IMG/VR virus record: IMGVR_UViG_3300030380_002211
Direction: 5' to 3' (one strand)
DNA length: 20,000 bases
Origin: an uncultured virus (IMG/VR IMGVR_UViG_3300030380_002211)
Lineage: Duplodnaviria > Heunggongvirae > Uroviricota > Caudoviricetes
Shown: piece after piece, positions 8,347-20,000 of the stretch
Numbering within the stretch: the first letter of the stretch is position 1
Layout: every line of letters starts with the position of its first letter
Made by a program: the position numbers and the translations under genes
The notes under the pieces: generated by a model
Database searches by the model: none
Seen by the model: only the letters and a program-made list of their open reading frames with translations
Told to the model about the DNA's origin: nothing

Positions 8347-9723
8347 TTATACTTTAAAATCTGAGAACTGTCCCAGTTTTTTAAACTTATCATTAGACGA
8401 TAGTGTGTCTTGCCCACTATCAACTAAATCGGTTTGTGCGTTTTGTTCTACATCATAGAAACGCATTTTAGACCTATCAACACCAAGTATAAATTTTCTA
8501 TTTACAGTTGGGTCGTTATATCTATTCTTCAATTGTTTGACCATTATCTGGTTCTTTTCTTCTAGTTCTTCACTACTAATCAAAGCAAACATAAAGTCAG
8601 CTGTTGCAGGAAGACCAAAACTTTCTGAGGTATCTTCTAGACCTACATCGCTACTTACAAAACCACCTCGTGTTGTTTGAGTAGCAGAGAAGATAGGAAT
8701 ATCATGTTCGACAGCAAGACCTCGCAATTCTTCAGCGATTGCTTTAATCATTGTATAACTATTTACATTTGAACCAGACTTAAATCTAGCCGATGTACAA
8801 ATATTTAGATAGTCAATAAACACGATATCAGGTTTAAAAGATTTCTTTAATGCCAATTCACTAATCAAGTTTTTAAAATGACCTGTGTGAGCAGTAGCAG
8901 TAGGATATTCTTTAATAATTAATTTACCTGTTGTTTTCTTTTGTAACTTATTAATCTTTGTTTCATACATTGAGTATGGTAATTCTTCTAAATCACTCAT
9001 GCCAACATTTAATAAGTTCGAATCTATTCTTTCAGCGATACGTTCTTCAGCCATTTCTAAAGTTATGTATAATACATTTTTACCTTGTAATAAAACAGAT
9101 GAAGCAAGGTGTGTCATAAACATAGTTTTACCAACACCAGTACCTGCAAGACAAATATTTAAAGTCTTACTTGGTATACCACCTCTTGTAATCTTATTAA
9201 AAAACTCTAGGTCTAATTCTAATCTTTCTTCTTTCTTTTTGTAAAAGTCAAATCGTTCTTTTGATTCTTGCAAATAATCATGACCAACTTTCTGGTCAAA
9301 AGATACTGAGAGAGCAGTCGACAATAACTCTGGAAGATATTCTGGTGTATGTTTCTTATCTTTACCATCTATAATTTGTATGCCATTTAAAATCGCATTG
9401 TGAATAGAACGGTCTTTACAAAACTTTTCTGTAGTCTCAACTAACCATTCTAGATTAACTGGTTCAGGATTTAGTGTAGATAATATATCAGTAACTTGTT
9501 TATATTCATCTTCATTAATAGATTTATTACTATTGATTTCTATTGATAAGGATTCTTTTGTAGGAAGATTATTATACTTATTAACAAACTTATATATTTC
9601 TGCAAACAATACTTTTTCTAATCTATCAGTAAAGTATTCTTCTTTAATAAAAGGTAAAACTTTTCTACAATATGCTTCATTGTGAATTAAGTTTCTAATC
9701 GCTGTTCTTTCAATTCTTTCCAT
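8347..9723 (-). CDS. 41: Replicative DnaB-like helicase, T4 gp41 homolog
   Basis: Walker A AGTGVGKT, YITLEMAEE, FIDYLNI, SATQTTR, ESFGLPATAD and KQLKNRY; T4-like synteny. Confidence 0.96.
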   Translation of the reverse strand: MERIERTAIRNLIHNEAYCRKVLPFIKEEYFTDRLEKVLFAEIYKFVNKYNNLPTKESLSIEINSNKSINEDEYKQVTDILSTLNPEPVNLEWLVETTEKFCKDRSIHNAILNGIQIIDGKDKKHTPEYLPELLSTALSVSFDQKVGHDYLQESKERFDFYKKKEERLELDLEFFNKITRGGIPSKTLNICLAGTGVGKTMFMTHLASSVLLQGKNVLYITLEMAEERIAERIDSNLLNVGMSDLEELPYSMYETKINKLQKKTTGKLIIKEYPTATAHTGHFKNLISELALKKSFKPDIVFIDYLNICTSARFKSGSNVNSYTMIKAIAEELRGLAVEHDIPIFSATQTTRGGFVSSDVGLEDTSESFGLPATADFMFALISSEELEEKNQIMVKQLKNRYNDPTVNRKFILGVDRSKMRFYDVEQNAQTDLVDSGQDTLSSNDKFKKLGQFSDFKV

Positions 9724-10070
9724 TACTTACCTTCTTTCAACTGTTCACTAAACCAACTACCTGATAATTGTTCATCAAGCAATACAACTAGAATATCACC
9801 AATATGATTTACAAACTCTTGACTTTCTGTATCAGCCATAATATTATTTTCAATAACAGTATAATCAAACACCATAGGTAAAGCACCTTCTGGTGTCTTT
9901 TCTTCTTCTGGTCTAAAACCTACGTTACCATATTTAAGAACTATACTTGCATATGGTCCACTAATTAATTTAATTGCTGTAAAGTCTTCTCCTGGCTTTT
10001 CAACAAATACATAATCTTCTCTGTGTTTAGGACTGGTCGTCTGGTGTATCGCTGGTGTCTTCGGCTTCAA
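9723..10070 (-). CDS. Conserved small protein in the T4 gp40 position (between uvsX and 41)
   Basis: TTG start behind GGAGA, overlapping the uvsX 3' end. Synteny and size match gp40-like proteins; homology was not verified. Confidence 0.6.
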
Positions 10071-19164: not shown

Positions 19165-19236
19165 TTATTTGTTCATTACATACATTGTTACTTCAAAACC
19201 GAAACGCATTTCAGTCGCTTGAGGTTTAGTCCACAT
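19165..19236 (-). CDS. pqqA: Pyrroloquinoline quinone precursor peptide PqqA (23 aa)
   Basis: Hand translation gives MWTKPQATEMRFGFEVTMYVMNK*, with the W-x-K-P leader and GFEVTMY (E-x3-Y) core. AGGAGA RBS lies 6 nt upstream and a terminator lies downstream. Confidence 0.95.
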   Translation of the reverse strand: MWTKPQATEMRFGFEVTMYVMNK

Positions 19237-19328: not shown

Positions 19329-19766
19329 TTACTTGATGTCAATAGTTCGAGGTTTCTTTTCCTCTGGTACAACCTTTTCTAACTCGACTAAAAGCATTCC
19401 GTCTTTTAATTTAGCACCATTTACAACTACATCATCTGCTAATGTAAATGTTCTACTAAATTTTCTTTTCGAAATACCTCTATGAATTGTTTCCTTTTCG
19501 TCTTTATCATCATTCTCAACTGACTTAATTGTCAATTGATTAAGAGCAGATTGAACTTCAATATCTTTTTTATTAAAACCAGCAAGTGCCATTTCAATCT
19601 GAAAATTGAAATCATCTACTTTATTAATGTTGTAAGGTGGATATGATGTCGGTTGTTTAACTGTGTACTCTAATGTATTATTAAAGTGGTCAAATAGGTC
19701 ATCAAATCCTACTGAAAATGGACGCAAATCGTTCCATATATTACTTGGTATAGATAGTCTTGTCAT
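19329..19766 (-). CDS. hsp20: Small heat shock protein Hsp20 (IbpA-like, about 145 aa)
   Basis: SVGFDDLF, YPPYNI, IEMALAGF, HRGISKRKFSRTFTL, LKDGML and VPEEKKPRTI. Start moved to ATG 19766 behind AGGAGA. Confidence 0.95.
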   Translation of the reverse strand: MTRLSIPSNIWNDLRPFSVGFDDLFDHFNNTLEYTVKQPTSYPPYNINKVDDFNFQIEMALAGFNKKDIEVQSALNQLTIKSVENDDKDEKETIHRGISKRKFSRTFTLADDVVVNGAKLKDGMLLVELEKVVPEEKKPRTIDIK

Positions 19767-19830
19767 ATTTTTTCTCCTTTTATTAAGCAAGTTTATCATA
19801 ACGATACCTCTTAATTGAGCGTATCATAAT

Positions 19831-19838
19831 TATTTATA
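19831..19838 (-). promoter_or_regulatory. T4 late promoter consensus TATAAATA upstream of hsp20
   Basis: Exact match in an intergenic region about 65 nt above the hsp20 start. The AT-rich background lowers specificity. Confidence 0.65.
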
Positions 19839-19864
19839 TAACTTATTAGTACAATAATAAAAAA

Positions 19865-19997
19865 TTATTGGTAGAGGTAGGCCTCACCCTCTTTATACTA
19901 ACGACTCTTATGTCGCCTATCACTTTCGTGCTACGGAGGCCAATGAACCAATAAAGACGTTGTTTTTTTGCTTCGGGTGAAGCGGGAGAAAACAACG
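19865..19997 (-). ncRNA. Candidate structured RNA: multi-stem junction with pseudoknot, plus an upstream hairpin (may extend beyond the window)
   Basis: Closing stem 19954-19947 / 19872-19865 (8 bp). Hairpins CAC-GAAA-GTG (19930-19921), CGAC/GTCG (19915-19902) and AGAGG/CCTCT (19892-19873). Loop GAGGCC is complementary to GGCCTC at 19941-19936. A separate hairpin spans 19997-19958. Confidence 0.65.
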
Positions 19998-20000
19998 AAA

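Follow-up and report, generated by a model that had tools for sequence, protein, structure and literature searches.

A pseudoknotted RNA domain upstream of hsp20

We analysed a 20,000-nucleotide (nt) stretch from the uncultured virus IMGVR_UViG_3300030380_002211 (Caudoviricetes), referred to here as the window. At its right end, on the minus strand and upstream of the small heat-shock gene hsp20, lies a compact structured RNA element that we call the module. A prediction made from the sequence alone had described a closing helix around three hairpins, one of them with a GAAA loop, together with a pseudoknot between GGCCTC and the loop of the last hairpin, and we recovered each of these elements at its predicted position. 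The parts of the module, with helices named P1 to P4, are as follows.

19865-19954, minus strand: the module as a whole, in which P1 closes P2, P3 and P4 and a pseudoknot is formed
19954-19947, minus strand: 5' strand of P1, TTATTGGT, which pairs with ACCAATAA
19941-19936, minus strand: 5' strand of the pseudoknot, GGCCTC, whose partner is GAGGCC in the P4 loop
19930-19921, minus strand: hairpin P2, CAC-GAAA-GTG, a variable and dispensable arm
19916-19901, minus strand: hairpin P3, GCGAC-ATAAGA-GTCGT, with a GNRA-type loop in most relatives
19892-19873, minus strand: hairpin P4, AGAGG-GTGAGGCCTA-CCTCT, with a 10-nt loop
19885-19880, minus strand: 3' strand of the pseudoknot, GAGGCC, within the P4 loop GTGAGGCCTA
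19872-19865, minus strand: 3' strand of P1, ACCAATAA, which joins P4 directly with no linker
19864-19859, minus strand: T-run TTTTTT directly 3' of P1, the likely RNA 3' end

On the 3' strand, the 8 bp of P1 run into the 5 bp of P4, giving 13 stacked pairs in the window. The 151-nt stretch at the right end of the window folds at -40.6 kcal/mol (z = -3.22), and 1 of 200 shuffled sequences folds as well. The minimum-free-energy fold places GGCCUC:GAGGCC in a nested helix that replaces P4. Against this computed fold, the comparative data presented below support a structure in which P4 and the pseudoknot coexist.

Covariation supports the fold and the pseudoknot

Covariation among homologues had been proposed as a check on the predicted structure, and it gave strong support for the fold including the pseudoknot. 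We collected 96 distinct homologues with a pattern fixing the two blocks ATTGGYCT and GGTGAGRCCTACC, and the resulting alignment was fitted to a covariance model. Because the search pattern fixes both blocks, their invariance is partly by construction. In this alignment, which as a model-fitted one leans to its own structure, 96.4% of the cells hold a pair; the corresponding figures are 75.3% for shuffles and 36-53% for controls with slid partners. Changes on both sides are found in 17 of the 25 pairs, and none of 500 shuffles reaches the covariation score.

Similar support came from an alignment that was not fitted to any structure. In a MAFFT alignment of 23 sequences, pairs fill 87.4% of the cells, against 33-53% in slid controls, and compensatory change is seen in 13 of 27 pairs. 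RNAalifold run on a plain MAFFT alignment arrived at P2, P3 and P4 by de novo prediction, and 11 of the 18 pairs it predicted are compensatory. It missed P1, the register of which varies among subtypes in that alignment.

The individual helices of the 96-sequence alignment follow the same trend. P1 is paired in 91.7% of cells with both-side changes in all 6 pairs counted (4 of 8 on the MAFFT alignment), P3 in 97.4% with 4 of 5 pairs compensatory, and P4 in 96.9% with 3 of 5 pairs compensatory. The pseudoknot is kept throughout the 96 homologues (100% paired), and 4 of its 6 pairs are invariant, an invariance partly forced by the search pattern. Its third pair, at which Y and R were left free in the pattern, takes the form U-A in 84 sequences and C-G in the other 12, and neither U-G nor C-A was observed; judged by eye, C-G turns up in several subtypes with unlike P1, P2 and P4. 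G-U pairs are also conserved, at the sixth pseudoknot pair in 94 of the 96 sequences and at the first P3 pair in 70. Since these would be A-C mismatches on the other strand, the minus strand is the functional one.

The module matches no known RNA family and no conserved reading frame

The original prediction had left room for a known marine phage motif. That option fails, as the module matched none of the glutamine, manA and wcaG riboswitch models and none of the ribozyme models of Rfam. With Rfam 15, no match reached the gathering score anywhere in the window; at E <= 10 we obtained nothing meaningful on the module strand of the window and no match on a compact copy of the module. Searches of 20 related loci gave nothing on the module, and one of the locus in the Pelagibacter phage Mosig gave two chance-level matches. 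ARAGORN called no transfer RNA (tRNA) or transfer-messenger RNA (tmRNA) gene in the window and none on the module in 12 + 60 loci, and the tRNA model RF00005 was not among the matches at E <= 10. According to PMC9004378, the phages Melnitz and Mosig carry a two-piece tmRNA with glutamine riboswitches adjoining it. This had suggested to us that the module might be a tmRNA, an idea we rejected, as ARAGORN finds none at these loci.

To look past position 20000, we extended the window through the viral contig L001, chosen because its Hsp20 match is 100% identical and because it contains the window's right-end 151 nt exactly. The gene upstream of the RNA locus is an open reading frame (ORF) of 116 amino acids (aa), ORF116, for which no Pfam family was found. 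The original prediction had named the coding end of an upstream gene as a possible explanation of the region; this does not hold, because ORF116 stops at L001 2681, 85 nt before the equivalent of base 20000.

We also asked whether the module itself might be coding. The spacing of its two invariant blocks falls in all three modulo-3 classes (33, 39 and 24 of the 96 homologues), so that no reading frame is conserved. A stop-free frame is present in 39 of the 96 modules on the same strand and in 65 on the opposite strand, counts that are uninformative at such a length. The RNA preceding the module, described in the next section, contains 1-nt insertions and deletions, and the candidate GTG start is GTA in 10 of 50 relatives. 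Variation in the stems is compensatory, not synonymous or placed at third codon positions. Taken together, the comparative evidence strongly supports a fold that is real and conserved, and points to the module as a family of its own that matches no Rfam family.

The module is an optional insertion behind a conserved small RNA

A further hairpin precedes the module, with 9-bp and 5-bp stems and a CTCCC internal loop as predicted, and we confirmed it at 19958-19997/20000 on the minus strand. The original prediction had combined this hairpin and the module into one compact unit. The structured, pseudoknotted RNA on the minus strand is borne out, but the preceding hairpin belongs to a separate and more widely conserved RNA, which we call the core RNA. 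Inspection of the sequence past position 20000, advised with the original prediction, located its remaining part and a TATAAATA box in L001.

19958..20000, minus strand: H3, the last hairpin of the core RNA, whose hairpins H1 and H2 and TATAAATA box lie beyond the window at L001 2690-2766

The core RNA is about 115 nt long and would start about 69 nt past the window end, behind a TATAAATA box that directly follows the stop codon of ORF116. The first ~130 nt of the intergenic region recur in 41 of 80 hsp20-selected loci, with one additional truncated copy, and the exact core-RNA motif is present in 88 viral contig stretches. Over 50 distinct sequences, H1, H2 and H3 are 97.9% paired with 11 of 24 pairs compensatory, a score that 0 of 500 shuffles reach, and the H3 stem shows both-side changes in 6 of its 8 pairs. 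The TATAAATA box stands 32-35 nt upstream of the core motif in all 60 distinct contexts (60/60). This sequence is the T4-type late-promoter consensus as used for the related phages Melnitz and Mosig in PMC9004378. Given the conserved hairpins, the fixed box and the T-run after H3, we read the core as a late-transcribed small RNA of about 115 nt, with transcription probably starting from the TATAAATA box.

Within L001 the core RNA (2690-2809) consists of H1 with a GUAA tetraloop, an invariant single-stranded Shine-Dalgarno (SD)-like AGAGGUAGAG, H2 and H3. By eye, the H3 loop is complementary to an upstream GGG(U), a candidate H-type pseudoknot in the core RNA. The Pelagibacter myophage HTVC008M has a divergent version of the core RNA with two CUCGUAAAU loops.

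The module is optional in this arrangement. Of 67 distinct core contexts, 30 contain it, inserted between H3 and the T-run in such a way that the T-run itself is split. Relatives without the module have a T-run (T7) directly after H3, and in two further rows a decayed mini form is left with only P1, one hairpin and the T-run. Presence varies even at close range, since L004 encodes an Hsp20 that is 96% identical and yet has no module. Natural variants found among L013-L015, L098 and L126 include the mini form and a duplicated P2-P3 arm. In the window, the core and the module would together make a composite RNA of about 210 nt ending at P1 and six U residues.

The module family is confined to phages

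A pattern consisting of the module's two most conserved blocks matched at least 120 viral contigs, which represent 103 distinct contexts; 83 of the 103 are without the exact core motif. The modules range from compact forms of about 70 nt, from which P2 is missing, to forms of about 130 nt in which the P2-P3 arm is long or duplicated, P2 reaching about 60 nt in some of them.

We built a covariance model, R1, from 24 sequences and a second model, R2, from all 100 R1 matches. R1 gave exactly one match in each of the 100 sources searched (100/100), and a single copy in each of five phage records searched whole (5/5; 48-141 kb). Of the 80 hsp20-selected loci, 12 have a module by this model, as do Mosig and the phage Kolga; HTVC008M has none. 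R2 added no homologue in 81 other sources, and searches with both models of 38 hsp20 loci that are more distant (L043-L080), of HTVC008M and of relatives lacking the module gave nothing. A BLAST search of 50,697 phage records returned only Kolga and the phage Aegir; Mosig was found only by the covariance model. The cultured carriers, Mosig (Kyanoviridae) and Kolga and Aegir (unclassified Caudoviricetes), were all isolated on Pelagibacter.

We also scanned prokaryote genomes, one for each of 185,579 species. The pattern matched 31 times, and one match is real, lying on a 3.9-kb contig binned with a metagenome-assembled genome of Rhodobacteraceae. The other 30 arose by chance: a cyanobacterial coding sequence accounts for 12 of them, and the 18 of the 30 that were run with R2 scored at most 20 bits. 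The module family is phage-only, essentially absent from prokaryote genomes, and occurs once per genome.

In Mosig (MT647606.1; L293), the core RNA, the module and another conserved RNA-like stretch, about 110 nt long, are covered by two annotated 'hypothetical proteins', Mosig_00014 and Mosig_00015, at about 9619-9867. These two are probably not genes.

The module occurs in heterogeneous contexts

We sorted the downstream contexts of the 96 distinct sequences into classes defined by regular expressions. The module is followed by another conserved RNA-like stretch of the Mosig type in 20-21 sequences, by CAAGC heptad repeats and then a TTGACA...TATAGGAT promoter-like box in about 15, by a TATAAATA box that abuts P1 without a T-run in 13, by a T-run in 12, by an SD sequence and ATG within 15-23 nt in about 11, and by Flavobacterium-1 RNA or a look-alike in 4. 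The remaining 22 contexts are unclassified. Upstream of the module there is frequently a hairpin, and in Kolga-type phages the stop codon of a small ORF lies 0-8 nt before it. The genes that follow are mutually unrelated and include hsp20, a 391-aa ORF, an SNF2-type helicase and small ORFs. A riboswitch class would be expected to sit consistently in the 5' untranslated region of functionally related genes and to have an expression platform, whereas an ORF start lies within 15-23 nt of the module in only about 11 of the 96 contexts. Because the contexts are this heterogeneous, a classical hsp20 riboswitch is unlikely.

Several of these neighbourhoods contain further structured or repeated elements. 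Flavobacterium-1 RNA (RF02976; 97.9 bits, L173 1292-1407) or a look-alike follows the module on its 3' side after about 10-20 nt in the Kolga-like contigs L173, L211, L176 and L183. Glutamine riboswitch aptamers are located just downstream of hsp20 in two module-bearing myophage contigs (L186 1869-1917, 53.0 bits; L244 1878-1931, 49.8 bits). On the 3' side of compact modules, for example in L185, L192, L206 and L273, 3-6 CAAGCNN heptads are followed by TTGACA, a gap of about 17-19 nt and TATAGGAT. Other contigs have a TTAGAATGATTCTAA palindrome where the CAAGCNN repeats and promoter-like box would be.

We considered a general linkage to the gene for ribosomal protein S21 and rejected it. S21 lies upstream in 37 of the 64 loci with at least 700 nt of upstream sequence, but 36 of the 37 belong to the myophage synteny group and the other is Kolga-type, so that the proximity is a lineage effect. 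In Kolga, S21 is likewise about 260 nt upstream of the module.

Part of the stretch is contained in 20 listed sequencing runs, 14 of which are recorded as RNA, and we examined four runs from four studies of marine RNA libraries. The RNA-library sequences over the locus are assembled contigs and speak for presence only, not for transcription, strand or ends.

Neighbouring genes

The closest named relatives of the window are the Pelagibacter myophages HTVC008M and Mosig, with similarity confined to hsp20. On the distal side of the locus, in L001, ORF116 is preceded by phage-encoded ribosomal protein S21 (2039-2245; Pfam, 62.4 bits) and a CobS/MoxR-like AAA ATPase (724-1932). On the hsp20 side, the window contains the following features.

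19831..19838, minus strand: TATAAATA box, a match to the T4-type late-promoter consensus, lying between module and hsp20
19761..19828, minus strand: 5' leader of hsp20, with a weak resemblance to the ROSE_3 RNA thermometer (RF02523)
19329..19766, minus strand: hsp20, a small heat-shock gene
19168-19236, minus strand: 23-aa ORF between hsp20 and the gp45 clamp gene, encoding a PqqA-family peptide (Pfam PF08042, 43.6 bits, cut-off 21.1)
Right end of the window, minus strand, gene order: regA, gp62, gp44 clamp loader, gp45 clamp, 23-aa PqqA-family ORF, hsp20

TATAAATA matches three times in the window against 4.4 expected by chance; the position of the box at 19831..19838 is conserved in the alignment of relatives. 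The hsp20 leader scores 26.8 bits (E = 0.001) with ROSE_3 and does not reach the gathering score of 43. Its two hairpins and SD region (19761-19828) are all kept across relatives. A peptide resembling the precursor of pyrroloquinoline quinone is unexpected in a SAR11-type myophage.

Possible functions of the module

We propose, tentatively and with a little less than even confidence, that the module is a portable element acting at the RNA level in end formation, processing or stability and read by a factor of the host or the phage. The boundary contexts in which it is found, together with the stack of P1 on P4 and the elbow-like topology, lead us to favour such a role. Positions 19865-19954 on the minus strand form an autonomously folding domain in which the P4 loop reaches back to pair with the strand that directly follows P1, and in this pelagimyophage-type phage the domain is inserted in the U-tract of the core RNA's terminal hairpin, between the S21/ORF116 genes and hsp20. 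Stacked on P4 and followed by the U-run, the closing helix P1 may provide the RNA 3' end here in place of the core RNA's own terminator; the closing helix and U-run of the mini variant could make the same substitution. The conserved junction and the pseudoknot might be recognised by a processing or stability factor, much like a tRNA-like handle, and the module, placed between RNA or transcription units, would then mark or protect an RNA boundary. The comparisons above establish the fold with its conservation, distribution and contexts; transcription from the upstream box, termination at the U-run and all that concerns the recognising factor are what we infer.

Several results weigh against this proposal. 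One 795-nt RNA-library contig spans the locus from ORF116 through the T-run into hsp20. A simple terminator scan called no terminator at the module, because the enclosed 'loop' of about 74 nt exceeds the size rule of the scan. End formation is also not the general role of the family, since a T-run after P1 is rare (12/96) and P1 abuts the TATAAATA box without one in 13 contexts. About 11 of the 96 contexts resemble a 5' leader directly before an ORF, which would fit a cis-regulator. As to a tRNA-like handle, ARAGORN and the Rfam tRNA model detect nothing tRNA-like, and the P4 loop has 10 nt compared with 7 in a T-loop. An association with tRNA clusters was looked for and rejected, tRNA genes being present in 2 of 60 loci and both at least 700 nt away.

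A bolder version, which we regard as possible but doubtful, is that the module represents a new class of portable functional RNA exchanged among unrelated phages of the SAR11 clade. It would act either as a small ribozyme or processing handle that punctuates phage transcripts, or as a decoy that captures a host factor, for instance an RNase, a defence nuclease or a factor associated with the ribosome, and its patchy, single-copy and phage-only distribution would reflect a function in an arms race.

It is unlikely, in our estimate, that the module acts in cis, as a leader or riboswitch. Core RNA and module would then form one long leader of hsp20, or of whichever gene comes next, and the module would respond to a ligand, to temperature or to a protein and thereby control read-through at P1 and the U-run, or translation. 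The conserved junction nucleotides and the loop-to-strand pseudoknot of the module are features that aptamers typically have, P1 with the U6 after it could be a ligand-stabilised terminator, and an SD sequence with ATG follows at close range in the minority of contexts noted above. Furthermore, hsp20 is downstream in 42 loci, a ROSE-like leader follows the module, and phages of the same group carry glutamine riboswitches (L186 and L244; also in PMC9004378). Between the module and the next gene, however, most contexts have a TATAAATA box, a sigma-70-like box, a T-run or a further structured RNA, and the downstream genes share no relationship. The module is dispensable among very close relatives such as L004, the pattern scan of prokaryote genomes found no copies in host genomes, and no consistent alternative pairing with an SD sequence or a terminator was apparent by eye. 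The module does not look like a metabolite-sensing switch for hsp20.

No better placed is a trans-acting RNA directed against a host factor, serving as decoy, inhibitor or regulator, for example in counter-defence or take-over, and swapped among unrelated SAR11 phages. This would agree with the restriction to phages in single copy and with the patchy presence among near-identical relatives. It would also suit the sharing of the module between a T4-like phage of the Kyanoviridae and unclassified Caudoviricetes, which differ in gene context while their cultured members all come from Pelagibacter. The unpaired nucleotides are very highly conserved as well, although the conservation of two blocks is partly forced by the search pattern. 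Against this reading, most contexts show no dedicated pair of promoter and terminator, and the module is often fused to other RNAs or placed directly after a stop codon.

We consider it improbable, more so than either of these two, that the module represents a new class of self-cleaving ribozyme, at which phage transcripts of several parts are cut. A compact (~70-130 nt), pseudoknotted RNA with invariant junction nucleotides, found in phages between RNA or mRNA segments and without consistent gene association, has the general features of one. Rfam ribozyme models are nevertheless unmatched at E <= 10, and RNA-library contigs pass through the module uncut, which is weak evidence. Known small ribozymes are often multi-copy, unlike the module.

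That the locus is not RNA at all, and instead holds a small ORF (the 72-aa frame at L001 2703-2921 or a frame on the opposite strand) or an inverted-repeat site acting at the DNA level, is scarcely credible: the frame 19846-19998 is open to the window end and stop-free frames are common, but the modulo-3 spacing, the compensatory stems, the 1-nt core indels, the GTG-to-GTA changes and the conserved G-U pairs all argue against it.

Likeness to known systems

Cloverleaf-like small RNAs of phages that are processed by RNase P include the C4 antisense RNA of P1/P7 and the CI RNA of P4, and Rfam has a C4 family. Like these, the module is a single-copy phage RNA of about 80-100 nt with a closing helix around hairpins, lying within a longer predicted transcript. 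It differs in having no Rfam match at E <= 10, in the pseudoknot that ties its last loop to the 5' junction, and in that no complementary target sites were identified.

tRNA-like structures can serve as processing handles, as with mascRNA at the 3' end of MALAT1 and the viral tRNA-like structures. In the module, P1 similarly runs into P4, and the P4 loop pairs with the strand that follows P1, a topology resembling the D-loop/T-loop contact of a tRNA; the module also sits at boundaries of RNA segments. By contrast, its loop has 10 nt and forms 6 pairs, and it is without a CCA end, an anticodon arm or a link to tRNA clusters (2/60 loci).

The marine phage riboswitches (glutamine, RF01739; manA; wcaG) are also phage-borne, compact junctions with a pseudoknot, and the glutamine ones occur in the same phage group. 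The module differs from them in matching no model, in lacking a consistent downstream gene and host copies, and in being usually set apart from the next gene. Flavobacterium-1 RNA (RF02976) is, like the module, an orphan small-RNA motif and neighbours it on the 3' side in L173, but its sequence and fold are unlike those of the module and it is absent from the window.

In the literature on pelagiphage pseudoknots, on structured RNAs or thermometers of phage hsp20 genes and on Flavobacterium-1, we found no paper describing the module RNA. Fremin, Bhatt and Kyrpides (2023; PMC10690425) screened over 5 million viral sequences by comparative analysis and reported 10,006 candidate structured RNAs; supplement file 5 of their catalogue lists 20 candidates at most 25 bp upstream of HSP20 genes. 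The main text of PMC10690425 does not mention hsp20, and the module motif is not in the six searchable supplement files, the alignment archives being outside that search. This catalogue may already list the module, and we qualify its novelty accordingly.

Significance

In the ocean no bacterial clade is more abundant than SAR11, and, to our knowledge, almost nothing is known about RNA-level control in its phages. Because the module is well delimited, single-copy and modular, and is carried by the culturable phages Mosig, Kolga and Aegir, its function is directly testable. Should it turn out to be a ribozyme, to serve as a processing handle or to act as a decoy for host factors, it would constitute a new class of phage RNA tool. 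Were it only a structured terminator or stabiliser, it would still correct the annotation of Mosig_00014 and Mosig_00015.

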